Below are positions 1 to 22,565 of a stretch of DNA of 23,054 nucleotides, piece after piece (position 1 is the first letter of the stretch; each line of letters opens with the position of its first letter). This stretch comes from a virus: the UHGV virus genome UHGV-1326467. One strand, given 5' to 3'. The position numbers and the translations under genes were made by a program. The notes under the pieces were generated by a model. The model was not told the origin of the DNA. It searched no databases and saw only the letters and a list, made by a program, of their open reading frames with translations.

Positions 1-320
1 CCGAAGCGGCGCAGAAAAAGCTGGATGAGACCACCCGCACGCTGTCGGCGCAGATTGCAGCGCTGCAAAAGCAGAACGCCCAGGATAAAAGCCAGCAGAA
101 TTCCGCGCTCGACGCGCTGAACAAAAAGAATGGCGAACTGACCGCCGCTGCCGAAGCGGCGCAGAAAAAGCTGGATGAGACCACCCGCACGCTGTCGGCG
201 CAGATCGCCGCGCTGCAAAAGCAGAACGCCCAGGGCGAAAGTCAGCAGAAATCCGCGCTCGACGCGCTGAGCAAAAAAAATGCTGAGCTGAGCGCCGCTG
301 CCGAAGCGGCGCAGAAAAAA
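1..320. repeat. 150-bp in-frame tandem repeat, 2 full copies (1-150, 151-300) plus a partial third, about 90 percent identical
   Basis: ccgaagcggcgcagaaaaagctggatgagaccacccgcacgctgtcggcgcag recurs at 1, 151 and 301; period 150 bp is a multiple of 3 and encodes a 50-aa unit (AAAEAAQKKLDETTRTLSAQIAALQKQNAQ...). Confidence 0.9.
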
Positions 321-983
321 TATACTGAGTCAGTTGCTGCTTTGAACAATCAAAATCAGAAATTACAGTCTGCCCTTGATAGCCAGGCCATAAAGGAAAG
401 TGAGTTAAAGCTTACTGATAAAAGCATTAAAAATGCCTACGCACTCGGCGTTTTCTATCTGACTCAGGCGCTATCGGATGTGAATAAAATGGCTGACAAT
501 GATGTGAAGCTGTCGCCTTCGGCGCTGGTTTCAGGCTTTAACGATGCTTACCATAAAAAGCTGAAAATCAAAGAAGGTGAAATAGAAACCATCGTTAACA
601 CCCTTAATGAGCAAATGTCATCTAAGTACGTTGATATTGAAAAAAGAATCATGGCCAAAATTAAAAATAAAAAATATGAGGTTTTGCCTAATGGTGTCTA
701 TTTCGTGATTGATAAACAAGGGAAGCAACCTTACAAGCAGAATGAGTCCTTATCCCTGAATATACTGGAGAAAAAGCTTGATGGTACCCCAATACTCAAT
801 ACGATGAATTCCAGGATGATATACGACAAACAAATCGATCCCCTGATGGCCAAAGTTTTATCTGCGGGCTTAAAAGGCGGCGCGGTCACGCTATATGGTC
901 AGGCTGGTTCGCTGTACAGCACGACGCCCGCTGACATAAATCCTGATACGTTAATCTCAATTACCTTTGAACTCATTCCCTGA
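3..983 (+). CDS. FkpA/Mip-like FKBP-type peptidyl-prolyl isomerase family protein with N-terminal coiled-coil repeats; 5' end outside window
   Basis: Frame is open from the window edge and continuous with the 342..983 ORF. FKBP_N-like segment NAYALGVFYLTQ and a degenerate FKBP-like C-terminal domain (KGGAVTLYGQAGS...TLISITFELIP) resemble FkpA from memory. Confidence 0.5.
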   Translation, partial: EAAQKKLDETTRTLSAQIAALQKQNAQDKSQQNSALDALNKKNGELTAAAEAAQKKLDETTRTLSAQIAALQKQNAQGESQQKSALDALSKKNAELSAAAEAAQKKYTESVAALNNQNQKLQSALDSQAIKESELKLTDKSIKNAYALGVFYLTQALSDVNKMADNDVKLSPSALVSGFNDAYHKKLKIKEGEIETIVNTLNEQMSSKYVDIEKRIMAKIKNKKYEVLPNGVYFVIDKQGKQPYKQNESLSLNILEKKLDGTPILNTMNSRMIYDKQIDPLMAKVLSAGLKGGAVTLYGQAGSLYSTTPADINPDTLISITFELIP

Positions 984-999
984 TCGTCGATAGCGGGCA

Positions 1000-1523
1000 C
1001 CGGCAGATTGGCGCATTCGCAGGGTGGCAGGCCGAATACGTAAGATTCATACCCGTAACCGATATAAGCCTGTAGCCTGAAAGCGCGCCGGTGAGGATCC
1101 CGGCGAAGACCCCCATCTTAAGCACCTGGCCGCCCAGCACCATGCTCTGGCCGGCTGCTTTCATCTGTTCCGGCGCCGCGAGCTGGCCCTGCAGCTGCAG
1201 TGTGATATTCATGGCGTTGATAAAGACGATAAACGTCACCAGGCAATGAGCGCCGCGTAGCCTTTATCGCGGGCGGCCAGGCCTACGGGGATCCCAATGG
1301 CGAAGATCAGCGCCAGGTTCACCAGTACCGATACCGCTGATTTAGCAATGAGCTGGCCGATATTCTGAATTAAAGGATGGCCGAGCAAGGGCAGATATTC
1401 CGCAAGGTTGCCGTCGCCCAACACGTTGCCAAAAGCGATAAACAGACCCACTATCGGCAAGATAAGTACCGGCCCACAGAGGGATTTTCCAAAGTTTTGT
1501 AGGGCGTTCACAGCTCGTTTCAT
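1000..1523 (-). pseudogene. PTS glucose-family EIIC gene fragment, frameshifted near 1239 and 3'-truncated
   Basis: N-terminus MKRAVNALQNFGKSLCGPVLILPIVGLFIAFG resembles PtsG-type EIIC; the homologous reading continues in a second frame (973..1239 ORF) and ends after about 170 codons, whereas intact EIIC(B) proteins are about 450-500 aa. ATG at 1523 has an upstream GAGAG Shine-Dalgarno. Confidence 0.6.
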
Positions 1524-1741
1524 GGTTATCTCTCTTATAGAACTGCGCACAGGGTGCGTCACAGGCATAAAACTAGCGGGATGAAGGGGCGGTAAGCTAT
1601 TTATCTTATTGTTTTAAAAGCAAATTACGCGGAAAGTAGCATGTGACCTTCCGCGGTGTGAACGAGGTAACAGCAGATTAATCAGAGAAATTTTTGTCGG
1701 GATAGAGGTATGTGAGTATGACAAGCTGAAAGTAGGGGGAA

Positions 1742-2218
1742 TTAATGAGCAGATTGTATGTTTAAAACAAAAATCTGCTCATCATCCTCCGTGCAGGAAC
1801 AGGAAAATCCGAGTTTGTTCAGTAAATTTATTGAGGGAAGATTATTTGCCACAACGCCGGCTTTTACGGCTAAAAAACCTTGCTGCTTACACCAGTCAAT
1901 GACCGCCATCGCAGTTTCAAGGGCGTAACCCTGACCTGCATACCGTGGGCTAACGGTGTAGCCAAGCCAGATGGTCTCGTTTTCTTGTTTTAAGTAGAGA
2001 TCGCCAATCAAAGTCCCGGTCGCGGTATCGATCGCCGCGAGCTGCATGCCCTGCGTAAGAGAAGCGTTTCCCAGCAACGCCTCGGCATAAGCTTCCTTTG
2101 TCAGGCCCTTAAACCCCTGGTACTGCATCCATTCGGCATCGTTGCGATATGCCATAAAAGGCTCGATATCATCGGCGTTAAACGGTCGTATCACGCAGCG
2201 TTTTGAGTAAATATTCAA
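1742..2218 (-). CDS. GNAT family N-acetyltransferase
   Basis: Protein ...RPFNADDIEPFMAYRNDAEWMQYQGF...TLIGDLYL...GYTVSPRYAGQGYALE... has typical GNAT (RimJ/RimL-like) motifs. The track ORF start at 2308 is probably too far upstream; TTG at 2218 with an AGGA 6 nt upstream is proposed but uncertain. Confidence 0.65.
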   Translation of the reverse strand: MNIYSKRCVIRPFNADDIEPFMAYRNDAEWMQYQGFKGLTKEAYAEALLGNASLTQGMQLAAIDTATGTLIGDLYLKQENETIWLGYTVSPRYAGQGYALETAMAVIDWCKQQGFLAVKAGVVANNLPSINLLNKLGFSCSCTEDDEQIFVLNIQSAH

Positions 2219-2844
2219 AATTGATCCTGTGAAAATGGGGCGTGTAACGTCTTTTTCGCCATCCTGCGACGTCAAGCCCGTGCAATGCCGATGAGTGCCA
2301 GAGAGCATAATCGAATCTCAACTCATGATTGTCTTTTATTTGCGTCAATAAATGCAATGTGAAGCCGTCCCTTTTCATCTGGAAACGGAAGGTAGACGAA
2401 TACAGGATTGAGAAGCAGGCCGCCACCAGGCTACTCATCAGGGGCGTATCAATGTGGTCTCCGGTCCGGAGCATGCTGAACCGCTGCAGTAACGAGTGTC
2501 GCGGCCACTTGTGGTGCGGAAACAGGCAGGATGAACAGCGGGGAAGCATGCAACCAGCGTTACTGTTAAGGATTTCGAAATAAAAGAGCGAATGTGGCGA
2601 ACGGCCAGAGCGTAAACCCGCTGGATTTGATGATTAGCACAAGGCCATCCTCATCAGGAAAACGTAGTGCGCTTTAATGAGAATGTCTGATTTTATCTCA
2701 TTGAATAAAAAGTGTTTTTTCTGGCGCACAGGCTTAGTTTTAGGTTCCACAAAAACACTAAAGCTTTATGAGGTGCCTGACAAGGTGCCTAAAAGGTTCA
2801 GATTTAATTAGTTGGCATCTGACTTCGCGGGACAAATTGAGGGC

Positions 2845-2880
2845 ACAAAAAAGCCCGCAGGGCTTGCGCCGTGCGGGCTC
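2845..2880 (-). terminator. rho-independent terminator of the native ssrA trailer
   Basis: Perfect 8-bp inverted repeat agcccgca / tgcgggct (2852-2859, 2872-2879) with a 12-nt loop, followed on the minus strand by TTTTT; lies about 45 nt downstream of the tmRNA CCA end. Confidence 0.5.
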
Positions 2881-2925
2881 TTAGGACTTCATCGGATGAC
2901 TCTGGTAATCACCGATGGAGAATTT

Positions 2926-2961
2926 TGGTGGAGCTGGCGGGAGTTGAACCCGCGCCCGAAA
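2926..2961 (-). other. ssrA: int-proximal prophage attachment site (attL in lambda convention): 36-nt copy of the ssrA (tmRNA) 3' end
   Basis: Minus strand reads tttcgggcgcgggttcaactcccgccagctccacca, matching the enterobacterial tmRNA 3' end (T-arm, acceptor, CCA) as recalled; similarity breaks upstream where the integrase gene begins, so no complete ssrA is present here. Confidence 0.6.
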
Positions 2962-3018
2962 CTTTATAACCTCATGATAAACAGTGATAAAAAAATGTAG
3001 CGTTTTGCTGCGGATCCT

Positions 3019-4209
3019 TTACGGCTCCTTTGAGGTTCCACCGCTGACCAGCTTGGGTCGTTTTTCAGTGTTGCCGTCATACTCCTTCAGATAGCGTCCA
3101 TAATGCCTGAACAACATTTCAGGCCCTTTGTGTCCCATCTGCGATGCGAGCCAGAACAGGTTAGCGCCTTGACTAATATGCCTGGTCGCGAACGTATGCC
3201 TGGTCTGGTATGGATTGCGGTACCTGATCCCGGCTTTGCGTAAAGTTGGCACCCAGGCTTTCTTTCTTATCGCATCGGCACCCGCCCATGGTTTTTCTGT
3301 CTTGGGATCCTCAAAGATCGTTGCATCTTTCATAAAGGTGAAAGGCTTCTGAGAAATCAGGGCATACAAGGCTTCTTCGGTTAACTCAACTTTACGTGTT
3401 CCAGCTTTAGTTTTCGTGCCCTTAATTACTCCCACTACGCTGGCATTTTGCACATGCGCTGTTTTGCCGATAAAGTCGATATCGCGCCAACGGAGGGCGC
3501 AGAGTTCAGAACTACGTAGCCCGGTTTCAATTGCAAAGCGGAATATGTTTTCCCACTGCTTGTTACCTGCGGCATGCAAAAGCGCTTCAACCTCGGCCGG
3601 TGAAAGCGGATCAACAATATAATCACTTTCATCCTCGGTTTTACTGCTCTGGTAGCGCGAGGCTGTCACCAGTGAAACTGGGTTAATCTGTAATACACCA
3701 TCAGTCACAGCTTCATCCAGTGCTGAGCGTAGGAATGAAAGTTGGTTCCTAATCGTTTTTAATGTCGTTTTCTGACTCTGGATCCATGTTTTTAAAGCAG
3801 CAGGTGTTAATTCACTGGCAGGAAAAACGTGAAGTGATGCCAAAGCATTTAAACATTTCTTATATCCGCCGATTGTTGAAGGAGATAATTTTCTCGTTTC
3901 ACAAATTACAAGATATTCATCGAGATAATTTTTTACCGTTTTTCCTGTTGAAGCATTACCAAATATTTTAAGTCGTGCCGAACGGGGAAAGTGTTCACCA
4001 TAATTGAATGTACCCCGCTCAATTTTATTGTGAATTTCGCCGAGTGTTCGCTCGGCGTATTTTATGTTTTTGCTATTAACTTCAAGGTTTGATAAAGGTT
4101 CCCGGCATTTCACCCCCTTATAGGTAAAGGTAATATTGATAGTTTCCCCAGTACTATGTTTCCTGATCGTTACGCCGCGCGGGAGTTTAGGCGATTTTGT
4201 CGAGCCCAT
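3019..4209 (-). CDS. int: phage integrase, tyrosine recombinase
   Basis: 396 aa; C-terminal catalytic motifs ...TRHTFATRHI... and ...LFRHYGRY (R, H-x-x-R, Y), N-terminal arm-binding region; sits next to the att site and overlaps xis. Confidence 0.9.
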   Translation of the reverse strand: MGSTKSPKLPRGVTIRKHSTGETINITFTYKGVKCREPLSNLEVNSKNIKYAERTLGEIHNKIERGTFNYGEHFPRSARLKIFGNASTGKTVKNYLDEYLVICETRKLSPSTIGGYKKCLNALASLHVFPASELTPAALKTWIQSQKTTLKTIRNQLSFLRSALDEAVTDGVLQINPVSLVTASRYQSSKTEDESDYIVDPLSPAEVEALLHAAGNKQWENIFRFAIETGLRSSELCALRWRDIDFIGKTAHVQNASVVGVIKGTKTKAGTRKVELTEEALYALISQKPFTFMKDATIFEDPKTEKPWAGADAIRKKAWVPTLRKAGIRYRNPYQTRHTFATRHISQGANLFWLASQMGHKGPEMLFRHYGRYLKEYDGNTEKRPKLVSGGTSKEP

Positions 4210-4415: not shown

Positions 4416-5294
4416 TTAATTAACTGCGCTTTTTGGCGCTGGTGGTGCGATCGCGCTCATAGCGGCGTGGACAACACAAGCAATATGCTCACGCAATTGT
4501 TGTGTACTGTGATATTCAATAGCTATATCACGCAGTTTATTGATTAGTTCACGGATTTGATGCTCTTTCAGCACTACTGGTAATGGCTGATAGGTGGTTA
4601 CATTAGCGAAAGCTGCTCTCAATCCGATCTTAATATCCTCCACATCGTCATCACCCAGGGGACCATCGGTTAGCGCATGATGGAATGCGTAAGCCATAGC
4701 ATCTGTTACTGGCCCTACCGCCGATGGTTGATCTTTAATGTGCAACCGCGGCTCACCGTCTTTCGGCTCAGGCCATTCGCGCTGTTTGTTCACCGCCAGT
4801 TTTTCGATCATCGCCTGGGTAATCTGCTCGTCTGTAATACCAGCCCGGCGCTGGGCATCCCACAGCAGGAATTGCATATCAGCCCACTCCGACAGGTCAT
4901 CTGGTTCCGCTGCGGCCTCCATAGCCTCTTTTGCCAGGTGCTTCAGTGGGCCAACCGGGCCGACATTACCGAACGTAGCCTGTGACCACTCGGCGTGCTC
5001 ACGGCGTACCTGCTCGCGGTCCGGCGCTGGCTGCGCGTGGCGATAGAGCGGGATATCCCCCGCCTCCTGGTTTTGTTTACCCCAAATCAGAGATGTTTCT
5101 CGGCCCATAGCAATATGATGAAGGTTTCGTTCATCTGTGAACACAACCGGCTCACCGTCCATTGCGTCCAGCGCCATGCGGGCCAGCTCTTCCGCTTCTT
5201 CTGCTGGCAGCATTACGTTGATTTCAGCTCCATAGGTTTCACGCCATGATTTAATTTTTTCCAGACGTTCTCTGTTTAACTGGTTATTGGTCAT
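4416..5294 (-). CDS. DUF550 (MazG-like dATP/dGTP pyrophosphohydrolase) domain protein with C-terminal extension
   Basis: Central segment ...HAEWSQATFGNVGPVGPLKHLAKEAMEAAAEPDDLSEWADMQFLLWDAQRRAGITDEQI... resembles phage DUF550 proteins. ATG at 5294 with AAGGAG 7 nt upstream is preferred over the track start at 5354. Confidence 0.55.
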   Translation of the reverse strand: MTNNQLNRERLEKIKSWRETYGAEINVMLPAEEAEELARMALDAMDGEPVVFTDERNLHHIAMGRETSLIWGKQNQEAGDIPLYRHAQPAPDREQVRREHAEWSQATFGNVGPVGPLKHLAKEAMEAAAEPDDLSEWADMQFLLWDAQRRAGITDEQITQAMIEKLAVNKQREWPEPKDGEPRLHIKDQPSAVGPVTDAMAYAFHHALTDGPLGDDDVEDIKIGLRAAFANVTTYQPLPVVLKEHQIRELINKLRDIAIEYHSTQQLREHIACVVHAAMSAIAPPAPKSAVN

Positions 5295-5305
5295 TGGTTG
5301 GCTCC

Positions 5306-6064
5306 TTACACTGCCAGTTGCAACTGCATGTCGAACCGGTCGCGCTGCTCGCAATATGTAAGCGAACCGGGGCTATTATGTGATTCAATGCGCTCTACCA
5401 TTAGGGCGGCGCGAGTCTCTTTCGATGCTGGCGCATAGGCACCAGACCAGGCTTTATCTATCCCGATATTGCGGGCCACATTTGTGGAATCGGCGCTCGC
5501 CAGCGGAAGCTTTGTGAAAATCAACGGGTTCAGCATGCGTAACCCATGAAGTTTCGTAATCGGCTGCCCGTACTCATCTACAACGTGACGAATCAGGTCT
5601 TTCATTCTGGCGACTGCGAGGTTTGGTCGCTTAACGTCGTAATCGCCACAACTTCCTATCGCCACCCGAGGCCACTCGTTGCACAACCTGATAAACCGCT
5701 CATCGCTTTCGTTCATGTGCCATACCGGAACGCCGATGAATTTCCCATGCGGCCAAGCAAGCAGTAACTCGTCATTTTCCCGCTCTCCTCCGTCGATAAC
5801 GTCAGGTATAATGGCGAAATCAAATCCGGGGTGATTCATCCAACGAGCCACAAACTCGTCGTAATCGCTCCAGTCGATTTTGTTTTTCCCAGCCTCCTTC
5901 CAGGCGGTAAATGCGCCATTGTCGAGAGCGAAGGACTGGCAATATTCAGATGCCAAGTTAATTTGCCCGGAATGCGCGAAACTGATGAAGGCATGGCGTC
6001 CTTTCCAGGCTTTCAGAGCGCACGTATCCGGTGTTATAGGCCCACCGTGATAGTGAATCATCAT
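5306..6064 (-). CDS. TGT-fold protein lacking the Zn subdomain; candidate DpdA-like DNA 7-deazaguanine transglycosylase
   Basis: 252 aa; motifs FALDNGAF (compare TGT LTDSGGFQ), AIIPDV, KLHGLRMLNP (compare YLMGVG) and DSTNVARNIG (compare DCVMPTRNARNG). No CxCxxC...H zinc motif. Start overlaps the stop of the upstream gene. Confidence 0.45.
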   Translation of the reverse strand: MMIHYHGGPITPDTCALKAWKGRHAFISFAHSGQINLASEYCQSFALDNGAFTAWKEAGKNKIDWSDYDEFVARWMNHPGFDFAIIPDVIDGGERENDELLLAWPHGKFIGVPVWHMNESDERFIRLCNEWPRVAIGSCGDYDVKRPNLAVARMKDLIRHVVDEYGQPITKLHGLRMLNPLIFTKLPLASADSTNVARNIGIDKAWSGAYAPASKETRAALMVERIESHNSPGSLTYCEQRDRFDMQLQLAV

Positions 6065-6711
6065 CCCTCCACCTTAATGCCGGAGTTATGGATTTCATGA
6101 ATCGCATTGTCATTGCCAGCGCACCAACCTTCGGCATAATCCCGGCTGAATCCGCTCATATGCATGACTTCGCCAACGGAACGCTTCGGCAGCTTCACGG
6201 AGCGGGACTCCAGCTCGGCGATGCGCTGGCGAAGAGCCGCAATCTCAATTTCTGCAGCATCGGCATAATGAACGTTTTCATGCTCCAGCGGCGGAAGGTC
6301 TGGAGTATTCACGCCAAACAGCGCCGCCAGTGCGCGATAGTTCAGCTCGCTGTGATAGCGGCCTTTGCAGCGAACCAGTTTTTCGGCTGCTGCACGGATA
6401 GGTTCAATATCGTCGATATGCGCTTTGAGCTTATCAGCGCGGAACCGCTCGTTATCAAAGCTGGTACGCCAGCTGTCACTCTCCTGCTGCACCTTCTCCA
6501 GCGCCTCTACCAGCGCGAGGATGTTTACCGGGTTGGCTTCTTTGTTGAATTCATTCAGATCAGTGATATCGATATCAATCTGTTCACCTTCGTGCTGAGA
6601 AATATCGATAATCTCGCCATATGGGTATGCTGCGAGTCGTTCATGTGCCCCAATGGCATTCTCTGCTGCCGCTTTCAGGCTCTGCGCCAGTTTGGTGATA
6701 TCAGTTGTCAT
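6061..6711 (-). CDS. Ead/Ea22-like phage early-region protein
   Basis: 216-aa acidic protein with coiled-coil segments (NILALVEALEKVQQESDSWR...); ATGA stop/start overlap with both neighbours. Family assignment is from memory and approximate. Confidence 0.45.
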   Translation of the reverse strand: MTTDITKLAQSLKAAAENAIGAHERLAAYPYGEIIDISQHEGEQIDIDITDLNEFNKEANPVNILALVEALEKVQQESDSWRTSFDNERFRADKLKAHIDDIEPIRAAAEKLVRCKGRYHSELNYRALAALFGVNTPDLPPLEHENVHYADAAEIEIAALRQRIAELESRSVKLPKRSVGEVMHMSGFSRDYAEGWCAGNDNAIHEIHNSGIKVEG

Positions 6712-7436
6712 GCTGCACGCTCCTGTTTAATCCCCATGCGCTGGCATGCGGTGCGGTAAATGGCAGCATCCTTCTCGATGCCAATGAAGTTACGCCCGGT
6801 CTGTTGGCAGGCGACGCCGGCGGTACCGCTACCCATAGTGAAGTCCAGCACCGTATCGCCTGGGTTGCTGTAGGTTTCAATCAGGTATTGCACCAGCCCC
6901 AGCGGCTTCTGTGTTGAATGAAGAGATTGCTTTTGCTTATCACTAGAGAATTTCTGCACGTCTCGCGGATAGCGGCTTGTTGAATCGTAAGTGACTTTTT
7001 TCAACGCCTCGCCATAGACATCAGTATTCGGCGTGCCTCTTGTTGCAGTTTTTCTGGCGTGCCCATGTGTCATCTGTGGGTTATAGGTCGGCTGACGGCG
7101 ATAAAACACCTCGATGTTTTCATGTGCACGAAGAGGTTGTTTTTTCGCATTCAGGAAACCCGTAGCATGTGGCTTCTCCCAAATCCACTCCGACCTCCAG
7201 TCCCGTAGATTGCTGTTGACCAGCACACTGGTGAAAGGCTGGGCAGAGAACAGCACAATAGCGGCGTTGGGCTTAGCGATACGGTATAGCTGGTCCCACA
7301 TCACCTGCAGATCGAGAACAGAATCCCAGCGGCACTGAGTGGTGCCGTAGGGAATATCGGCACATACCAGGTCAACGGTACCGCTGGCGATTTGCGGGAA
7401 GACGTCGAAGCAATCGGCGTTGTGAAGGCGGATCAT
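6708..7436 (-). CDS. DNA methyltransferase, N6_N4 (beta-class) family
   Basis: Motif IV-like DIPYG (ADIPYGTT) precedes HSTQKP...VLDFTMGSGTAGVACQQTGRNFIGIE (AdoMet-binding motif I), the beta-class order. Confidence 0.85.
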   Translation of the reverse strand: MIRLHNADCFDVFPQIASGTVDLVCADIPYGTTQCRWDSVLDLQVMWDQLYRIAKPNAAIVLFSAQPFTSVLVNSNLRDWRSEWIWEKPHATGFLNAKKQPLRAHENIEVFYRRQPTYNPQMTHGHARKTATRGTPNTDVYGEALKKVTYDSTSRYPRDVQKFSSDKQKQSLHSTQKPLGLVQYLIETYSNPGDTVLDFTMGSGTAGVACQQTGRNFIGIEKDAAIYRTACQRMGIKQERAA

Positions 7437-7558
7437 TTGGCCCCCTCTCGCAACTGCTTAAACGCTTTCGCCAGCGCCATAACCTTTGTCTCTTTGATCG
7501 ACGGCTCGCCCGCCGACTCCAGCGACTGAATGAGCTCGTTTACTGTTGAGATGTTCAT
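7433..7558 (-). CDS. small hypothetical protein (41 aa from the MNIS start)
   Basis: ATG at 7558 overlaps the upstream TGA and the stop overlaps the methyltransferase ATG, so it fits the translationally coupled chain; the track's GTG start at 7618 would overlap the upstream peptide out of frame. Confidence 0.35.
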   Translation of the reverse strand: MNISTVNELIQSLESAGEPSIKETKVMALAKAFKQLREGAK

Positions 7559-7689
7559 GCTGTCACCCATTCGATCATCATGCATATGCCCCAGGTCACA
7601 GCGACTACTGCAACCCACCCGACAACACTGGCCAGTGCAGCAAACCAGAGAAGGGCGCGCCGGCTGTAATTTTCAGGTTCAAAGTTCAT
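7555..7689 (-). CDS. small hydrophobic peptide (44 aa), predicted single transmembrane helix
   Basis: MNFEPENYSRRALLWFAALASVVGWVAVVAVTWGICMMIEWVTA; ATG overlaps the ParB-like stop (ATGA) and the TGA overlaps the next ATG. Below the 60-aa ORF track cutoff. Confidence 0.4.
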   Translation of the reverse strand: MNFEPENYSRRALLWFAALASVVGWVAVVAVTWGICMMIEWVTA

Positions 7690-8486
7690 AGCGCCTCCCC
7701 AAGCACCCAGCGCAGAGCCTCAGCATATTCGCCGCTGGCATCTTCGAGGGCTTTTGTAATTTCCTTGCGTGATCTGATACGCGGCTTTGCTTCACCGAGA
7801 ATCTTGCGCTGCCGACGGGCTTTTTCGTGGCCTTTGGTACCAGCTGTGGCCAGCTCGATTTCTGCCACTTTTGCCCGCTGTTCTTCTGGTGGGAGCGCAC
7901 CAAGCTGACGCGCCTGGGTAACGGTAACTGTGCCAGACTCCACCGCTTCCCGGACTGCTTGGGTAGCCTCGAGGAGGGAGAGCGTTGCACGAACGGTTTG
8001 AACGCTGCAGCCAAATAACACCGCAATATCGTCCTCATCGAGACCGCGGTCGAGCGCGTCTGACATTTTTTTAGCCCGGCCGAGCGGTGTATCAGGTCGG
8101 CGAATTTCATTTTCGCTGACCATGTATTTAGCCATCTGATTTGCTGAGCCGCGCTTAACGACCCCAGGAACAAGCAGTGGGTCTTTGCCTTCTTTCAGAA
8201 GGAGTTTATTTGCCTCCAGGGTATGTTTAACGCGCTGACGGCCTACAACCACGCAGGTGAGCCCTGTTTCAGGGTCTTTCCAGACGATAATCGGCTCCAG
8301 TACACCCAGCTCCTTGATGTTCAGAACCATCCCTTCGTCGATCGGCAGGTGGACCCGCTCATCGTAGAGAGGGTGGGTCTGATCGGTGACTAAATGCAGC
8401 TTTTCCGGTTCGAACGACAGGGCGTTGGTTTTGCCGCTGGCGCCGTACACGTCGATCGAGTTTTTAGCCATTGTTTTTAACCCCAT
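7686..8486 (-). CDS. ParB-like nuclease / partition domain protein with HTH
   Basis: N-terminal ParB/Srx-like segment (LGVLEPIIVWKDPETGLTCVVVGRQRVKH) followed by an HTH (VQTVRATLSLLEATQAVREAVESG). Confidence 0.7.
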   Translation of the reverse strand: MGLKTMAKNSIDVYGASGKTNALSFEPEKLHLVTDQTHPLYDERVHLPIDEGMVLNIKELGVLEPIIVWKDPETGLTCVVVGRQRVKHTLEANKLLLKEGKDPLLVPGVVKRGSANQMAKYMVSENEIRRPDTPLGRAKKMSDALDRGLDEDDIAVLFGCSVQTVRATLSLLEATQAVREAVESGTVTVTQARQLGALPPEEQRAKVAEIELATAGTKGHEKARRQRKILGEAKPRIRSRKEITKALEDASGEYAEALRWVLGEAL

Positions 8487-8664
8487 TCAGGACTGCCAAC
8501 ACGGCAGCCTGCGCTGTGTTTTGGTCCATTGCTTCGGTAAGGGCGATGAACGTTACATCCAGTCGTGAAGCAATATTGCGCATTAACTCTGCCGCTTCCG
8601 GTGGTAGATCTGGTGCCGCAGCGTAAGCTGCAGCGACCAGTTCTTTAACTTTCATATGTGGCAT
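8464..8664 (-). CDS. small hypothetical protein (66 aa)
   Basis: Start overlaps the stop of the upstream HD-domain gene (TAATG); sits within the coupled operon. Confidence 0.4.
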   Translation of the reverse strand: MPHMKVKELVAAAYAAAPDLPPEAAELMRNIASRLDVTFIALTEAMDQNTAQAAVLAVLNGVKNNG

Positions 8665-9191
8665 TAGCGCCGCTCCATCAGCTGGTGGAATCGGTTCATG
8701 AACATCCCATAGGCCTGACCTGGGCGAACCGGATTAATAACGAATTGATCCGTTGGAATAATGCCTTCGAGCATGGGCCAGACAGTACCGTCGTCGATCT
8801 CAAAGTCACGACGTTCGCTGGCCAACATCACTAGGTCGGCATATTTAACGGTCGGGTGCTGCTCAGCAGGTAGGCCGAATTTCTGACGTATTGCAGCATC
8901 AACCCGATCCTCAATGGCGCGGTAGTCCGGGAGCAGGCGTTTAAGCGGTGCTGGAATATCCTGCAAATAAGCCTCTGCGGCATCGTGCAGAAGTGCTTCA
9001 AGCGCAAACTCCTGTGGTACCAGGTGGCTGGTTAACACGCTGTGCTGACCAACGCTGTAGAACTCCGGAAGATGGCCAGCAAAGCGGCAAATATTCGAGA
9101 GCGCGTTAGCGATATCTTCGATCTCAATGGCATCCAGCTGGATATCCAGATAGTTAAAGTGCTTGCCTGTGAAGGTTTGAATAAAGCTCAT
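8664..9191 (-). CDS. yfdR: HD-domain phosphohydrolase, YfdR-like 5'-deoxynucleotidase
   Basis: HD motif (ALLHDAAEAY) and size (175 aa) match prophage CPS-53 YfdR as recalled; ATG at 9191 with GGAGA 7 nt upstream is preferred over the track start at 9221. Confidence 0.65.
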   Translation of the reverse strand: MSFIQTFTGKHFNYLDIQLDAIEIEDIANALSNICRFAGHLPEFYSVGQHSVLTSHLVPQEFALEALLHDAAEAYLQDIPAPLKRLLPDYRAIEDRVDAAIRQKFGLPAEQHPTVKYADLVMLASERRDFEIDDGTVWPMLEGIIPTDQFVINPVRPGQAYGMFMNRFHQLMERR

Positions 9192-9323
9192 CGTATTTCT
9201 CCATTTAATTGCGCTCTGCACAGCGCTGATTTTTGTGTGTAGGAATCCCTCGCCAGGTGGCGATTAATTGCAGGATTACGCTTTAATAAATCCCCGCAAC
9301 GACGGGGATTTAATGGAGAGCAA

Positions 9324-10789: not shown

Positions 10790-11697
10790 AGACTACACAC
10801 AGCACAGTTAACTAGGTTGTGGCGGTGGTGCCTCCACCTGCCGGGTTAAGCCATAACCGGCGACGTACACTGCCCGGAAACGCATTCCATGAACGGGTTG
10901 GCTCGCCACGTGCGCATAGCCGCAATTACCACAACGAAGAGAGCACTGCCGGTGTCCGAATCGAACGGACCTTTTCCCTGCCCATCACCAGATATAGAAC
11001 TATCCTGGCGTCTGGAATCGAACCAGACTCTGTGCCTTGCTCGTCAATGCCCTCATCGTTGTGTCCCGGACTCTTCCCGGGCGTCACACCTTTTCGCCGC
11101 GCTGGTGGGGCGCACGTCGTGCCTGAAACACTTAGCTTGCACATTCCAGTTGTCCGGATAGCGCATGGAACTTCAAGGGAACCATCCGGGCTGCTAACGC
11201 TGCATGTGCCATACAACGGTCGTGAATATTGCCGTTCACAACTGGAAGCGCACTCCTTCAGTTACAAACCAGTCCCCACGACGTATGAAGATGGAATGCG
11301 CTTTCATGTTGTGTACGATTCATCTACCCCGGTCCGGCGGCGCCACCTCGCCGGGGCAGATGCAAAGGACCGTTACGCGATCATTCGGCTTGTTGGTCTG
11401 GCCGGAAGTATCAAGTCCCGACATCGCGGATTCTGCTTCTCCGCCCCGATTTCACCCCCGCTATTGTTTAGCGCGCAAACCGAGAAAACGCCTTCAACGC
11501 TGTCGGCTTTCGCCATGTTCGATCAGGTATCTTCGGGCGGGGCGCCGGCGACCAACCGGCACAACCCCTACAGTATTAATCCAGGTCTACTGGACCCCCG
11601 ACGCCGTGGGCTAAACGGCTGCTGTATGTCGGGTGAGTTTCTGTTGCTGGTGGTCAATCCAGCTCCGCAACCCCTCCCGAAGACACCTGTTTTTCAA
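10790..11697 (-). other. ORF-poor, strand-asymmetric leader segment; candidate structured noncoding RNA or decayed locus
   Basis: No minus-strand open frame longer than about 112 codons and none protein-like; plus strand is C-rich, giving spurious 90-305-codon opposite-strand ORFs with low-complexity translations. Two T-arm-like hairpins with UUCGAUU loops (plus 10954-10970, 11011-11027) and a long-range inverted repeat (10878-10890 vs 11291-11304). Confidence 0.3.
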
Positions 11698-11910
11698 TCA
11701 AAACTTCAAATTACGCACCAGAGGGGCAGCAGTTGAGCCGCCTGACATTTGTACCCTGATACGGTTTACTGATGGTTTGCTACGTTCTTCGCCCGTAAAG
11801 CTGTTGAATGTGCATAACCCTAGGACTAAACGAGGGACGCCGCGTAAAATTACAATTCCTCCAGCTTTTGGTAGCTTGCGGTACGCCTTGCGGCGTTGTG
11901 CTGAATTCAT
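11698..11910 (-). CDS. pL-proximal small basic protein, possible N-like antiterminator
   Basis: 70 aa; N-terminus MNSAQRRKAYRKLPK resembles an arginine-rich motif (lambda N begins MDAQTRRRERRAEK); GAGAGG Shine-Dalgarno 8 nt upstream; first ORF downstream of the predicted pL. Confidence 0.35.
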   Translation of the reverse strand: MNSAQRRKAYRKLPKAGGIVILRGVPRLVLGLCTFNSFTGEERSKPSVNRIRVQMSGGSTAAPLVRNLKF

Positions 11911-11945
11911 CCTGGTTGCCTCTCACCGTAAAGTAAGTTTGCTGA

Positions 11946-11996
11946 TGAATGTAATATTAGAAGTCTTACATTTTAAGTCAAGAGGAAAATGTAAGA
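11946..11996 (-). promoter_or_regulatory. pL promoter with overlapping operator palindrome (oL)
   Basis: Leftward -35 TTGACT (11981-11976), 17-nt spacer, -10 AATATT (11958-11953). Perfect inverted 10-mers CTTACATTTT (11965-11974) and AAAATGTAAG (11986-11995) straddle the -35; the same 10-mer recurs in oR. Confidence 0.55.
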
Positions 11997-12020
11997 AGGC
12001 TTACTTTTTGTGGCGGGGCA

Positions 12021-12044
12021 ATAAAAAACCCGCGGATGCGGGTT
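12021..12044 (-). terminator. rho-independent terminator of cI
   Basis: Stem aacccgc / gcgggtt with loop atcc followed by TTTTTT on the minus strand, 8 nt after the cI stop codon. Confidence 0.7.
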
Positions 12045-12051
12045 CGGGGGC

Positions 12052-12684
12052 TTAGAGATCGATGATTATTTGCTTAACTATACCGATCAGTTTTGTATCT
12101 TGGTTCACCTCTATAGGCTTAAACGACGGGTTTAGAGGTATGAGATAGGAAAATGGAGGGTCTATGGCGAGCTTTTTAATGGTCGCTTCACCACCAGTAA
12201 CGGTTTGGGCTATCACAATTTTGCCATTTGCCTCATCAACAAAACCGTATTCTGGCTCGACAATGACAACCGAACCATCAGGAATGCTAAGCTCTTGGCT
12301 CGAAGTCATCGAGTGACCTTTAACACGTAATGCAAAAGCTGATTCAGATAGCTTCTTTGTAGTTTTAACCAGTTCGTTAGCTGGATCGCCAATAACCTCG
12401 GTCCAGTTACCTGCCTGAACCCAAGATATAACAGGCACTTCTCTAACAGATATCAGGTTAATGTTGATACCGTTCTCGATATCGCCTGTACCGAAGATAA
12501 GCCATTCGGGAGAACATCTCAGGCACTGACATACCAATACAAGATTCTCGCCTGATAACTTTGTGGAATCATTTTCCCATTGTGTAACCGCAGACGCGCT
12601 GACGCCGGCCCACTCAGCAACATCACGTTGCGTAAGTTTTTTCTGCTTACGTCTAAATCTTAATCTGCTGCCAACGGTATCCAT
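12052..12684 (-). CDS. cI: CI-like repressor (HTH plus S24 LexA-like peptidase domain)
   Basis: N-terminal HTH (KLTQRDVAEWAGVSASAVTQWE) and C-terminal S24 domain with catalytic Ser (GHSM) and a downstream Lys; GGAGG Shine-Dalgarno; divergent from cro. Confidence 0.85.
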   Translation of the reverse strand: MDTVGSRLRFRRKQKKLTQRDVAEWAGVSASAVTQWENDSTKLSGENLVLVCQCLRCSPEWLIFGTGDIENGININLISVREVPVISWVQAGNWTEVIGDPANELVKTTKKLSESAFALRVKGHSMTSSQELSIPDGSVVIVEPEYGFVDEANGKIVIAQTVTGGEATIKKLAIDPPFSYLIPLNPSFKPIEVNQDTKLIGIVKQIIIDL

Positions 12685-12699
12685 AAAATCTCCTCCGGA

Positions 12700-12770
12700 T
12701 TACACGTTAGCAATCTTACATTTTATTGACGTAAGTATGCTGTCGATATAGCATGTAAGTATGCTAACTT
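12700..12770. promoter_or_regulatory. oR / pR / pRM immunity control region
   Basis: Rightward -35 TTGACG (12726-12731), 17-nt spacer, -10 TAGCAT (12749-12754). Operator half-sites CTTACATTTT (12715-12724), GTAAG (12731-12735) and ATGTAAG (12753-12759); direct repeat gtaagtatgc at 12731 and 12755. Confidence 0.55.
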
Positions 12771-15451: not shown

Positions 15452-16405
15452 ATGAGTCAGGAAGTACAAGAAGCTATGACCGCAGAAGAGCAAAATTTAA
15501 CAAAAAGCGTCAGCCCTTATTGCCTGGCACTTGAGGAACAGCGCCAGCGAAGTTCGCATTATTTGAAAGAAGTCGGGGATCAATGGCGTACCCCTGATCT
15601 GCTGTTCTGGGGCGTTAACGCTTTGTTTGGCCCGCTGGTGCTGGACCTGTTTGCAGACGACAGCAATACAAAATGCCCGGCATGGTATACCGCTGAAGAT
15701 AATGCGCTGACGCAGGACTGGTCTGGTCGTCTGGTAGAACTCGGAGGAGCGGCCTTTGCTAATCCGCCGTACAGCCGCTCGCAGTACCATGAAAAACAAG
15801 CCATCACTGGCATGACTCATATTATGAACTATACCGCCGAGCAGCGTGAAAAGGGTGGTCGTTACATTTACCTCGTGAAGTCAGCAACAAGTGAAACATG
15901 GTGGCCGGAATATGCCGATCACATCATGTTTATTCGTGGTCGTATTGGATTCGATCTCCCAACGTGGTTTGTGCCGGCCGACGAAAAGCAGAAGCCCACC
16001 AGCGCCTTCTTTGCTGGCGCTATCGTGATATTTGATAAGACATGGTGTGGGGAGCGCTTTAGCTATATCGATCGTATAGAGCTTGAGGCGAAAGGGCGCG
16101 CAAGTATGGCTTTGGCTGAGTTTGCTGCGGGAAAATTCCTGTCACCAGCTTCGCCAGTTCAGTCTCCTGAAGTGATCATCCCCGATGCTGTTGCATCACT
16201 AGCTGAGGCTGAATCCCGGATCTGGCCACTGGAAGTTGGTCTCGTCTTTGAACAGTTACAAGGCGCAGAGGATCTGGAATTCTCACAGCAGAACAAGCTG
16301 AAGGCCCACATTAACCAGTTGTGGCTGGAGCGGGTGCCCACCAGCGAAATCATTACCGTTGCTGGTGGTCTTGTCGGCAGCATGAGGGGGACCGCTCATG
16401 CGTGA
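15452..16405 (+). CDS. phage Dam-family DNA N6-adenine methyltransferase with C-terminal extension
   Basis: WRTPDLLFWGVNALFGPLVLDLFADDSN...AFANPPYS: NPPY catalytic motif and the typical phage Dam N-terminus, plus about 120 extra C-terminal residues. Confidence 0.8.
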   Translation: MSQEVQEAMTAEEQNLTKSVSPYCLALEEQRQRSSHYLKEVGDQWRTPDLLFWGVNALFGPLVLDLFADDSNTKCPAWYTAEDNALTQDWSGRLVELGGAAFANPPYSRSQYHEKQAITGMTHIMNYTAEQREKGGRYIYLVKSATSETWWPEYADHIMFIRGRIGFDLPTWFVPADEKQKPTSAFFAGAIVIFDKTWCGERFSYIDRIELEAKGRASMALAEFAAGKFLSPASPVQSPEVIIPDAVASLAEAESRIWPLEVGLVFEQLQGAEDLEFSQQNKLKAHINQLWLERVPTSEIITVAGGLVGSMRGTAHA

Positions 16406-18248
16406 GCTCATCGTAGACAACTTTGCGGGCGGTGGCGGTGCATCAACTGGGATAGAAATGGCGATCGGTCGTAGCGTTGATATTGCGATAAACCATGACG
16501 AAAACGCAGTGGCCATGCACCGAACTAACCATCCTGAGACGCTTCATTATTGTGAAAACGTTTTTGATGTTGACCCCTTGGCTGCGACAGGCGGGAAAGC
16601 TGTTGGGTTTGCGTGGTTTAGTCCGGATTGCACCCACTATTCAAAGGCCCGCGGCAGCAAGCCCGTCAAACGTGAGATCCGTGGTTTGGCCTGGGTATCT
16701 GTTCGCTGGGGATTGGATGTACGTCCTCGCGTGATGGCTCTTGAAAATGTTGAAGAATTTAAAACGTGGGGCCCGCTACTCTCTTGTGAGATGCGTCCTG
16801 ATCCTGAGCGTTCGGGTGAAACCTTCCAAGCATTTGTTGGAATGCTTTCTACTGGTATACCTGAGGATCATCCGGCGCTGTTCGAATGTTGCGAATTTCT
16901 CGGGATATCGCCGGATAGCAAACAAGCCAAACGGCTGATTGCTGGCCTCGGGTATAAGGTCGAATATCGCGAGCTTCGTGCCAGTGATTATGGTGCACCG
17001 ACGATCCGCAAGCGATTCTTCATGTTGATGCGTTGCGACGATAAACCCATTGTCTGGCCTGAGGCTTCGCATGGTGATCCTAAATCGGCCTCAGTGCTGA
17101 CAGGTAAACTGGCGCCATGGCGGACAGCAGCTGAATGCATCGACTGGTCCATTCCTGCACCATCGATATTTGACCGCAAAAAGCCGCTTGCAGTTAACAC
17201 GTTGAAGCGTATAGCTCGGGGTATCCAGAGATTTGTGGTCGATAGCGATAACCCATTCATCGTGAAATGCAACCATACCACGACACGCGGTAAATATGAT
17301 TGTTTCCGTGGACAGGAGTTGTATTCGCCAATACAGACAATCACCAAAACTCATGGTTACGCGTTGGCGGTACCTACTCTGGCACCGTTTATGGCTGGAA
17401 ATGGTGGTAGCCAGTACCAAGCTAAACCGCGCCCACTCAACAAACCAGTTCATACCATCCTAAAGCAATCCCGAGCATGCGTAGTTGCCCCGGTTATCGC
17501 CCGCCAGTTCGGTGCCAGCATTGGCCATCGGGCAGATGAGCCTAGCGCCACGATTACCGCTGGGGGTGGGGGAAAGTCTCAGTTAGTCACGGCCACGCTT
17601 ATTCAGATGGGGTATGGCGAACGGGTGGGGCAATCACCGCGGGTTCTAAATCTTGGTAAACCGTTGGGTACTGTTACAGCTGGGGGCAATAAGTTTGCCG
17701 TAACAACTGCGTTCCTGGCAAAACACTATGGCGGGAACTACACCGGTCCGGGCGTTGGGCTTGATGAGCCAGCTCACTCAGTGACTACAGTCGATCATCA
17801 CGCTCTTGTGACATCGCACCTGGTAAAACTGCGCGGTACCTGCCGTGATGGTCAGCGCACCGATGAACCGATGCCGACAATCACCGCAGGAGGTCAGCAT
17901 GTGGGAGAGATTAGCGCGCTGCTGGCGGCTAATGATTACGATGAGCGCCGTGCGGATCAAGTCAAAGAGTTCCTAAATTCGTTTGGCGTCAGCGAACTGG
18001 TGACGATTAAGGGCATTGTTTACCGGATTGTTGACATCGGAATGCGAATGCTACAGCCACATGAACTTTACCGCGCTCAGGGATTCCCGGACTGGTACAT
18101 CATCGACCGGGACTACCGCGGCGTGAAGTATTCGAAGGAAAAGCAAGTTGCGCGCTGCGGAAACGCCGTGCCGCCGCCGTTTGCTGAGGCGCTGGTTAGG
18201 GCCAATCTGCCGGAAATGTGCGTTAACAAACAGGAGCGAGCAGCATGA
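16398..18248 (+). CDS. DNA cytosine-5 methyltransferase, 616 aa, with a long repeated variable region
   Basis: Motif I FAGGGGAS, motif IV-like FSPDCTHYSKA, motif VI LENVEEF, motif X CGNAVPPPF. Four repeated modules between them, each containing a [ST][IV]T[AT][GV]-type core (TITAGGGG, GTVTAGGN, HSVTTVDH, PTITAGGQ). Confidence 0.85.
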   Translation: MRELIVDNFAGGGGASTGIEMAIGRSVDIAINHDENAVAMHRTNHPETLHYCENVFDVDPLAATGGKAVGFAWFSPDCTHYSKARGSKPVKREIRGLAWVSVRWGLDVRPRVMALENVEEFKTWGPLLSCEMRPDPERSGETFQAFVGMLSTGIPEDHPALFECCEFLGISPDSKQAKRLIAGLGYKVEYRELRASDYGAPTIRKRFFMLMRCDDKPIVWPEASHGDPKSASVLTGKLAPWRTAAECIDWSIPAPSIFDRKKPLAVNTLKRIARGIQRFVVDSDNPFIVKCNHTTTRGKYDCFRGQELYSPIQTITKTHGYALAVPTLAPFMAGNGGSQYQAKPRPLNKPVHTILKQSRACVVAPVIARQFGASIGHRADEPSATITAGGGGKSQLVTATLIQMGYGERVGQSPRVLNLGKPLGTVTAGGNKFAVTTAFLAKHYGGNYTGPGVGLDEPAHSVTTVDHHALVTSHLVKLRGTCRDGQRTDEPMPTITAGGQHVGEISALLAANDYDERRADQVKEFLNSFGVSELVTIKGIVYRIVDIGMRMLQPHELYRAQGFPDWYIIDRDYRGVKYSKEKQVARCGNAVPPPFAEALVRANLPEMCVNKQERAA

Positions 18249-18718
18249 TGAGGTTAACTCTCAGGCAGCAGGAGGTTCTGAACCTCCTGATCGAGTACCA
18301 ACGTAAGCATGGTTTCCCTCCTACCACTTACGAACTGACCGGCATGTTGGGGTGCCGGTCCCCCAATGCCGCAGCAACGCACCTCAAGGCGCTGGAGAGA
18401 AAAGGGGCCATCAAGATTACCCGCGGAGTTTCTCGCGGTATCAGTATCACCCCTTCGCTGTTGGCCAGAGAAATATCGGTCAATCTCAATAGCATCGTAA
18501 AAGTGAAACTTACTGCCGAAGCTCTAAGTTACATGAGAAGCCAGCACGAAGAGAATCGTATTCGGAAGCCGTGGTTATTTGGAGAGTTTGTTCCGCCAGC
18601 GACAGATGATGAGGGTTTTTCTAAGATGACTCTGTGGAGTCTCATGTCTGACCTGGGGCAACTCTGCTATTGCGGTGGCGACGTACCTTTCGAGCTAAAA
18701 ATGGTTCTGGAGGATTAA
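18245..18718 (+). CDS. LexA N-terminal DNA-binding domain protein lacking the S24 peptidase domain
   Basis: LRQQEVLNLLIEYQRKHGFPPTTYELTGMLGCRSPNAAATHLKALERKGAIKITRGVSRGI closely parallels the E. coli LexA DNA-binding domain as recalled; the about 80-aa C-terminus has no Ser/Lys peptidase motifs. ATGA overlap with the C5-methyltransferase stop. Confidence 0.75.
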   Translation: MMRLTLRQQEVLNLLIEYQRKHGFPPTTYELTGMLGCRSPNAAATHLKALERKGAIKITRGVSRGISITPSLLAREISVNLNSIVKVKLTAEALSYMRSQHEENRIRKPWLFGEFVPPATDDEGFSKMTLWSLMSDLGQLCYCGGDVPFELKMVLED

Positions 18719-22540: not shown

Positions 22541-22565
22541 GGCTTTGTATGTTCAACGTTGATTA

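Follow-up and report, generated by a model that had tools for sequence, protein, structure and literature searches.

A prophage C5-cytosine methyltransferase with six short homologous modules in its variable region and a small domain linked to its gene

Two overlapping methyltransferase genes in a lambdoid prophage

We analyzed a 23,054-nucleotide stretch of the viral genome UHGV-1326467 (the whole stretch is called the window here, and positions are counted from its first letter), which is the left half of an integrated lambdoid prophage of the Klebsiella/Raoultella type, 23 kb of the element being visible. The subject of this report is a pair of methyltransferase genes in this prophage, the first encoding a Dam-family N6-adenine methyltransferase (hereafter Dam) of 317 amino acids (aa) and the second a C5-cytosine DNA methyltransferase (hereafter the C5 enzyme) of 616 aa (Table 1). 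We find that the C5 enzyme has one intact catalytic core, into which short homologous modules are inserted in a tandem array. A first-pass annotation had described two tandem methyltransferase genes with overlapping stop and start codons, and both genes are present where it placed them. The overlap is 8 nucleotides (nt; ATGCGTGA), with the C5 start codon ATG at 16398 and the Dam stop codon TGA at 16403-16405, and a strong ribosome-binding site (GAGGGGGA, 16384-16391) lies inside the end of the Dam gene.

The assignment of the first gene to the Dam family, also proposed in the first-pass annotation, is well supported. The protein matches Pfam Dam PF05869 (E 2e-42, residues 35-216, 145 bits against a cut-off of 28.1) and the NCBIfam equivalog TIGR01712 phage_N6A_met (183 bits against a cut-off of 97.05), and a match to phrog_111 spans residues 7-317. 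By analogy with members of the phage Dam family, the target is probably GATC. The catalytic domain is followed by a low-complexity linker that is not conserved in an alignment of relatives. AlphaFold2 (AF2) was run on residues 235-317, and for the first ~18 of these, which lie in the linker, its predicted local distance difference test score (pLDDT) is below 50.

Three separate stretches of the 616-aa protein match PF00145 (E 2e-20, 73.7 bits against a cut-off of 22). The protein also matches phrog_116 and phrog_23072, and its nearest proteins are full-length, 616 aa long and 97% identical, from Raoultella ornithinolytica and Klebsiella. The catalytic motifs I, IV, VI, VIII, IX and X are all present in canonical order; motifs I, IV, VI and VIII together span 16422-17015 and motifs IX-X span 18045-18179. 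Across 149 homologs S75, P76 and C78 are invariant and E116, N117 and V118 nearly so, and motifs IX-X align with those of 3g7u and DNMT1. The catalytic core is modelled by AF2 at a pLDDT above 90, and Foldseek matches the model to DNMT1/MET1, 3g7u, M.HhaI and M.HaeIII (E 1e-9 to 1e-12).

Six homologous modules in the variable region

The variable region between motifs VIII and IX contains six consecutive homologous units of 35-39 residues each, ~220 residues in total. All follow one layout: a hydrophobic stretch, a Gly-containing loop, (D/N)(E/K)P-x-x-T-[IV]-[TL], 5-8 further residues, and a hydrophobic stretch ending in V (h-h-V, where h is hydrophobic). The first-pass annotation had recognized related modules in this region and counted four; the repeats are real and homologous, and their number is six. 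The self-alignment that it had suggested as a check supports the homology: the best off-diagonal Smith-Waterman self-alignment of residues 286-520 scores 96, compared with 30.4 +/- 4.7 (maximum 47) in 100 shuffles (z ~14). In leave-one-out comparisons, in which each module is scored against a profile made from the other five, for every module at most one of 300 shuffles of its own sequence reaches the module's score, modules 1 and 2 being the weakest. A BLASTP self-comparison of the C5 protein returned only the identity match, and a repeat search at the DNA level revealed no tandem array, only chance-like matches of 13-18 nt. Given the lack of a repeat in the DNA, we take the modules to be old, diverged duplications that are seen only at the protein level.

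In the AF2 model, module 6 alone is placed with moderate confidence (pLDDT 75-84), adjoining motif IX. A short strand is predicted at each module junction (residues 327-330, 360-363, 400-403, 433-436 and 469-477). Downstream of module 6, the segment 508-535 stands where most family members have a terminal 'KYYG...TTKDRFGLV' module (type A in the family-wide typing described below), which is absent here.

Module content varies among relatives

Close relatives of the C5 enzyme differ by whole modules. Among 121 homologs with 73-97% identity to the window protein we distinguish nine module types in seven colinear architectures, and an eighth architecture is found in Klebsiella phage Kp4866-6. In this close set the letters A, B and C denote modules without a counterpart in the window protein. 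The window architecture, 1-2-3-4-5-6, is found in 75 homologs; the others are 1-A-2-3-4-5-B-6 (17 homologs), 1-2-3-4-5-C-6 (16), 1-A-2-3-4-5-6 (6), 1-A-2-3-4-5-C-6 (4), 1-2-3-5-B-6 (2) and 1-A-2-3-5-6 (1), and Kp4866-6 has 1-A-2-3-5-B-6. Modules are gained and lost at exact module boundaries, with neighboring modules unchanged, and these whole-module differences account for the length classes of the homologs (576, 612-620, 650-660 and 692-695 aa). For instance, the nucleotide similarity between Kp4866-6 and the window breaks off at the boundary between modules 1 and 2 (17375), where Kp4866-6 has an extra module. Module 4 is optional, being precisely absent from Kp4866-6 and three other homologs (P0043, P0068 and P0091), and module 1 is present in all 121 close homologs.

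The wider family is large. An exhaustive search of 1.84 billion cluster representatives yielded 8171 representatives related to the C5 enzyme at E<=1e-3 and 2522 at E<=1e-30, and our family-wide analysis covers the best 150 of the 8171, which are 42-79% identical to the window protein. With an iterated module profile, we find 1-12 modules per protein, mostly 5-8, and the smallest complete members carry two. We typed 969 modules by average linkage on profile-aligned columns at four thresholds; single-linkage clustering, which chained all modules into one cluster, was replaced by this procedure. The family-wide types A, B, C, E, G and L that result are labelled separately from the letters of the close set; window modules 4 and 5 are family types C and B.

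Three features of this variation bear on function. First, the same type is very rarely present twice in one protein: at the four thresholds we observed 0, 1, 3 and 6 duplicated types where 20, 35, 59 and 80 were expected, below all 500 permutations. Second, the order of types is largely but not strictly kept, with 55 of 595 ordered co-occurrences (~9%) in the minority order; the window reads G-C-B-E, and two other representatives read C-B-G-E-A (P0123) and B-C-.-L-E-A (P0132). Type A (..KYYG..TTKDRFGLV) is last in 79 of its 80 occurrences, and type E, to which window module 6 belongs, is last or next to last. Third, each of the types to which window modules 3-6 belong is found in 30-68 of the 150 representatives, at 52-58% identity, compared with 60% for the catalytic core, and the type of module 1 is rare among these diverged proteins (2 of 150). 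Column entropy separates a universal scaffold (P19, T22, G9, G13 and V32) from two type-specific patches, columns 6-8 with 11 and columns 21 with 26-29, that vary between types and are conserved within a type.

Homologs of the C5 enzyme are present in 114 phage records, among them records from phages of Klebsiella, Escherichia (Flotzy and Eeyore), Citrobacter (phiNP), Pectobacterium (ZF40), Aeromonas, Pseudomonas and Vibrio, where they are annotated only as generic methylases. Homologs longer than 880 aa were considered as Dam-C5 fusions of the phage P1 Dmt type; this was ruled out, as their extra length is due to inteins (Hint and LAGLIDADG). Such inteins (Hint, intein-splicing and LAGLIDADG) are found in P0127, P0173, P0203, P0229, P0240, P0252 and P0269, ~10 residues after SPDC. 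Separately, a tblastn search with the window C5 enzyme matched Bacillus phage phi105 (KY197768.1, 29224-30543) at 50.7% identity in two pieces, at a place without an annotated gene.

A small domain linked to the C5 gene

The first-pass annotation had noted an extra C-terminal region in Dam. The region is real (residues ~255-317), but it is not part of Dam proper: it is a separable small three-helix domain (SD) that is genetically tied to the C5 gene and not to Dam. AF2 models the SD as three helices with a core pLDDT of ~90, preceded by the disordered linker; we found no Pfam match and no fold relative for it, and a word-indexed protein search returned mostly fragments.

We surveyed 80 related viral loci (L004-L083) for the open reading frame (ORF) that ends at the C5 start codon. 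The SD, which makes up the last ~65 residues of the window Dam, lies directly upstream of the C5 gene in 77 of the 80 loci, whereas a Dam catalytic domain is present in only 32 of these upstream ORFs. The upstream ORF takes several forms: a stand-alone SD ORF of 80-120 aa (37 loci), the SD at the C-terminus of Dam as in the window (16 loci), Dam with a ~150-aa insert and then the SD (16 loci), and the SD at the C-terminus of an unrelated ~170-aa 'MCCGSRMFW...DPPH' methyltransferase (10 loci). The junctions with the C5 gene are tight, with spacings of -8 nt (30 loci), -4 nt (30 loci) and +2 nt (16 loci) and other spacings in four. No SD was found inside 271 C5 homologs. In a distant clade, the SD is joined to the C5 enzyme itself, as an in-frame N-terminal fusion, in 11 of 70 loci (L106, L117-L119, L125, L127, L129, L134, L146, L150 and L151); in L118 (2704-5037), for example, the SD takes up residues 17-69 of the fusion protein (E 8e-12) and motif I follows. 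This linkage and the natural fusions argue that the SD works with the C5 enzyme. From the sequence comparisons we infer that the SD would act together with the C5 enzyme, as its partner or as a subunit, and that, in the window, it would also tether Dam to the C5 enzyme.

Table 1. Features of the window, with residue numbers for features within proteins
Feature	Residues	Position	Strand	Remarks
Host-type genes, left end		1-3019		left of integrase gene
FKBP_N-domain protein		342-983		host-type
PTS EIIC fragment		1236-1568		host-type
GNAT acetyltransferase		1742-2308		host-type
Integrase		3019-4209	-	
Leftward early operon		4416-9221	-	nucleotide- and DNA-modification candidates
dATP/dGTP pyrophosphohydrolase-like protein		4416-5354	-	PF04447
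TGT/DpdA-like protein		5306-6064	-	phrog_887, E 5e-100
N6/N4 methyltransferase		6708-7436	-	PF01555; adjoins ParB-like gene
ParB-like protein		7686-8486	-	
YfbR-like dNMP phosphatase		8664-9221	-	
CI-type repressor		12052-12684	-	
Sigma-70-like, pR-like promoter		12726-12754		directly right of repressor gene
Dam-family N6-adenine methyltransferase gene with C-terminal three-helix domain		15452-16405	+	317 aa
Dam catalytic domain	35-216	15554-16099	+	Pfam match
Dam motif DLFAD		15644-15658	+	
Dam motif NPPY	104-107	15761-15772	+	
Low-complexity linker of Dam	217-254	16100-16213	+	~40 residues
SD	~255-317	16214-16402	+	W-P-x-E-V ... I-N-x-x-W-L-E; matches phrog_16025
Translational-coupling junction		16384-16405	+	
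C5-cytosine DNA methyltransferase gene		16398-18248	+	616 aa
Motif I, FAGGGGAS	9-16	16422-16445	+	
Motif IV, SPDC	75-78	16620-16631	+	catalytic Cys78
Motif VI, ENV	116-118	16743-16751	+	
Motif VIII, TIRKR	202-206	17001-17015	+	
Module 1, FIVKCNHTTTRGKYDCFRGQELYSPIQTITKTHGYALAV	287-325	17256-17372	+	
Module 2, ...NKPVHTILKQSRACVV	326-363	17373-17486	+	type in 2/150 representatives
Module 3, APVIARQFGASIGHRADEPSATITAGGGGKSQLVT	364-398	17487-17591	+	type G; in 30/150 representatives, 52% identity
Module 4, ATLIQMGYGERVGQSPRVLNLGKPLGTVTAGGNKFAVT	399-436	17592-17705	+	type C; in 59/150 representatives, 58% identity
Module 5, TAFLAKHYGGNYTGPGVGLDEPAHSVTTVDHHALVT	437-472	17706-17813	+	type B; in 68/150 representatives
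Module 6, SHLVKLRGTCRDGQRTDEPMPTITAGGQHVGEISA	473-507	17814-17918	+	type E; near-constant type
Helical segment	508-535	17919-18002	+	AF2 helix 516-528, high pLDDT
Motif IX, RMLQPHELYRAQGFP	550-564	18045-18089	+	
Motif X, GNAVPPP	588-594	18159-18179	+	
LexA-type winged-helix DNA-binding protein		18245-18718	+	157 aa; PF01726, E 8e-20

Prophage context

The left end of the window carries host-type genes directly before the integrase gene, so the attachment site should be near 2550-3019. Beyond the integrase lies a leftward early operon rich in candidates for nucleotide and DNA modification, to which a gene for a DUF2303 protein also belongs. For its TGT/DpdA-like protein no Pfam TGT match was found, and the window shows no genes for preQ0 synthesis. 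The first-pass annotation had counted at least four candidate DNA-modification activities in the element, among them the TGT-like protein and the PF01555 methyltransferase of this operon, and that count holds. Its statement that the window encodes no cognate restriction endonuclease also agrees with our searches, in which no PADLOC restriction-endonuclease model matched any unassigned ORF within the 23-kb window.

Between the leftward operon and the repressor gene there are two ORFs in overlapping frames on the + strand (10819-11736, 305 aa, and 11633-12055, 140 aa), with a terminator-like site opposite them on the - strand (12045-12026). Neither has a Pfam or PADLOC match, and their placement is typical for a lysogen-expressed moron or defence gene.

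The rightward operon comprises, in order, genes for a CII-like protein, an O-like replication initiator, a PerC-like protein, the two methyltransferases, a protein with a LexA DNA-binding domain (LexA-DBD), RusA, a KilA-N protein, a DUF968/HNH protein and the antiterminator Q. The sole strong terminator-like site on the + strand is at 22565, after Q, and none was found upstream of it in the operon. The pR-like promoter and a terminator only after Q place both methyltransferase genes in the delayed-early, nin-like part of the operon. The methyltransferase region had no match in complete E. coli genomes.

The LexA-DBD gene and the end of the C5 gene share 4 nt (ATGA), and both belong to the same transcription unit; in 17 of the 80 related loci such a gene lies directly 3' of the C5 gene. 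The encoded protein is without an S24 peptidase domain and could regulate the methylation cassette or respond to SOS signals. The ORFs of the two methyltransferases and the LexA-DBD protein (15452-16405, 16398-18248 and 18245-18718) also match two PHROG families. The C-terminal 213 positions of phrog_33262, which is annotated as 'phosphoadenosine phosphosulfate reductase' (PAPS reductase), are the Dam domain, and in phrog_29443 the N-terminal part of the C5 enzyme is linked with the LexA-DBD protein. The two families look chimeric and able to spread wrong names; in phages Flotzy and Eeyore the gene at the corresponding locus is labelled PAPS reductase.

Comparison with known methyltransferases

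Temperate phages of Bacillus evade many restriction-modification systems by means of several target-recognition domains (TRDs) in one polypeptide, and the reviews name only Bacillus phages for this tandem-TRD strategy (PMC12707154; PMC8936443). For comparison we fetched the genes of M.SPRI, M.Rho11sI and M.H2I. The multispecific C5 enzymes of Bacillus phages (M.SPRI, M.Phi3TI, M.Rho11sI, M.H2I and M.SPBetaI) resemble the window enzyme in being phage-encoded orphans with one core, in which motifs I-VIII are followed by a variable region and then by motifs IX-X, and in lacking a restriction endonuclease (for the window enzyme, within the 23-kb window). The variable regions of these Bacillus enzymes are likewise made of contiguous units, 35-45 aa long (35-43 aa in the fetched SPR, rho11s and H2 enzymes), with a P/S-x-T-[LIV]-[TSN] core and an h-h-[AV]-V end (for example ...GLSPTITTNKGEGLKIAV, ...AVSHTLSASDWRGLNRNQKQNAVV and ...GEPAFTVNTIDRHGVAV), a grammar that they have in common with the window enzyme, and related Bacillus phages also vary in the units that they carry. 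An hhalign comparison of the family module profile with the Bacillus units aligns them in register, but with a probability of 3% (P 0.005). The resemblance to multi-TRD phage enzymes proposed in the first-pass annotation thus extends to architecture and grammar and stops short of significant sequence homology between the modules.

There are also clear differences. The window enzyme comes from a proteobacterial lambdoid prophage and has six modules, its family having up to twelve, whereas the SPR and rho11s enzymes have three to four units (as delimited by eye). Neither the SD partner domain nor the coupling to a Dam-family gene was seen in the fetched Bacillus records. A tblastn search of the phage collection with the first 172 residues of M.SPRI gave no record at 60-90% identity, and our literature search found no such enzyme described from a Gram-negative phage.

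The monospecific C5 enzymes (M.HhaI, M.HaeIII and the CP-933R enzyme 3g7u) share the catalytic fold and motifs. Foldseek compares them to the window model at E 1e-9 to 1e-11 with target-normalised TM-scores of 0.55-0.66, and 3g7u is the best PDB sequence match (E 3e-9). These enzymes are 327-376 aa long, in contrast to the 616 aa of the window enzyme with its ~220 residues of modules. The window Dam resembles the phage Dam family (T1, HP1 and VT-2/933W types) in its hidden Markov model (HMM) match, its DLFAD and NPPY motifs and its location in a phage early region, and differs in the ~40-residue linker and the 63-residue three-helix domain.

In function, the nearest analogues may be M.EcoGII and Mu Mom, which are orphan, non-specific or semi-specific modification enzymes. 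They too are prophage-borne, without a restriction partner and presumed silent in the lysogen, and they give broad protection of exported DNA (PMC12707154). The breadth of M.EcoGII and Mom comes from one relaxed recognition surface and concerns adenine, whereas that of the window enzyme would come from several discrete cassettes and concern the C5 of cytosine.

Proposed function and alternative explanations

Based on these comparisons, we consider it somewhat probable that the modules of the C5 enzyme are several independent recognition units in a phage self-methylation (anti-restriction) cassette. This reading draws on the grammar shared with the Bacillus enzymes, the insertion and deletion of whole modules, their partial shuffling, the lack of duplicated types, and a core-like conservation with type-specific patches. 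We propose that the Dam/C5 pair would serve as the self-protection methylation cassette of a lambdoid temperate phage. The genes share the rightward early promoter with genes for replication and of the nin type, so they are expected to act on replicating phage DNA, after induction or infection, and to be largely silent in the lysogen. The first gene would yield the Dam-family N6-adenine methyltransferase with its C-terminal SD, and translation of the second would be coupled to it. Each module would be a miniature TRD with a conserved scaffold and two type-specific stretches, and the modules would dock next to the only active site, one after another or through alternative conformations. One polypeptide would in this way methylate several unrelated sequences, as for M.SPRI, M.Rho11sI and M.H2I, and phages that gain, lose or reshuffle modules among one another would adjust which restriction systems they evade. 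For this cassette, we infer the multispecificity, the timing of expression, physical contact of the SD with the C5 enzyme, the sequence targeted by Dam and the anti-restriction role.

Several results weigh against this proposal. The module profile has no significant similarity to the SPR, rho11s and H2 enzymes (best HMM score -0.4), and against all PDB sequences it matched no recognition domain or methyltransferase. In the AF2 model, modules 1-5 are unplaced (pLDDT 31-57) in a region where the alignment is poor, so there is no structural model for six modules each reaching the active site; the low pLDDT may fit flexibly linked units, and equally a poor alignment in an indel-rich region. The non-duplicated types could also come from an old array that was inherited vertically with losses. 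Module 6 and type A, being near-constant, may be structural rather than specificity elements, and some modules could be inactive pseudo-domains. A literature search gave no biochemical or methylome data for any member of the C5 family. With respect to the partner domain, the SD was undetected in the other 59 of the 70 distant loci, even with an iterated SD profile, so the family as a whole does not require it.

In one alternative, the six modules are parts of one composite recognition domain, in which the repeats build up a beta-sheet or solenoid that touches the DNA as a whole. Its one specificity would possibly be long or degenerate, and the number of modules would alter one site or its affinity and add no independent sites. 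The strands that AF2 places at module junctions could pair into one sheet, all modules have a common scaffold, the minimal family members still have two modules rather than one, and the order is mostly conserved (540 of the 595 ordered co-occurrences). We nevertheless regard this explanation as unlikely. Whole modules are inserted and deleted with their neighbors unchanged in proteins that are 73-97% identical, the order is reshuffled in ~9% of co-occurrences, and a range of 1-12 modules is hard to reconcile with one cooperative domain on a fixed core. In addition, each module has its own T-[ILV] core, a feature that is single-copy in the monospecific M.HhaI.

A second alternative is that the array had a multispecific origin and that only one or two modules, for example module 6, are now active, the rest being decayed pseudo-domains or spacers; some Bacillus-phage enzymes reportedly carry inactive recognition domains. 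It would fit the placement of module 6 alone beside the core, the near-constancy of types E and A while others are optional, and the weak match of modules 1 and 2 to the common profile. We find it more doubtful still, since types 3-5 are as conserved as the core (52-58% against 60%) and the low entropy of their type-specific positions, together with this conservation, points to purifying selection and not to decay. Finally, it is very improbable that the modules are non-specific DNA-binding repeats that raise processivity or relax the specificity of a short-motif or near-non-specific C5 enzyme, with a purpose like that of M.EcoGII of E. coli prophages: modules 1-5 are indeed predicted to be flexible, but neither the avoidance of duplicated types nor type-specific residues conserved across distant relatives would be expected of such repeats, and basic residues are not especially frequent in the modules.

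Implications

That several recognition domains can share one C5 core is already known. What appears to be undescribed in the searchable literature (REBASE lying outside it) is the family and its scale, the very short cassettes, up to twelve in number, the non-redundant and partly shuffled sets, and the partner domain. As a tentative generalization, which we put forward with less confidence than the multispecificity of the window enzyme itself, thousands of 50%-identity clusters of proteobacterial-phage C5 enzymes may build their specificity from combinations of 1-12 autonomous mini-TRD cassettes of ~35 residues drawn from a shared library, a subset of them with an SD partner that is free, fused to an adenine methyltransferase or fused to the C5 enzyme; the window enzyme would then recognize about six motifs. 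If so, the cassettes would be among the smallest self-contained DNA sequence-recognition units known. They would amount to a natural library of short, swappable recognition elements on a constant scaffold, for use in engineering targeted methylation and in decoding the specificity of C5 methyltransferases, which is poorly predicted because 5-methylcytosine is under-sampled in methylomes. The SD is a separate lead, as a conserved accessory element of a C5 methyltransferase without a known fold relative.

If one cassette corresponds to one specificity, the multi-TRD principle would extend beyond the few Bacillus phages studied in the 1980s-1990s to thousands of prophages of Klebsiella, Raoultella, Escherichia, Citrobacter, Pseudomonas, Vibrio, Aeromonas and others. 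The module content of each enzyme would then record the restriction systems met by its phage lineage. Such an extension of the principle would bear on how temperate phages, with the resistance and virulence genes that they carry, cross restriction barriers in clinically important Enterobacteriaceae.

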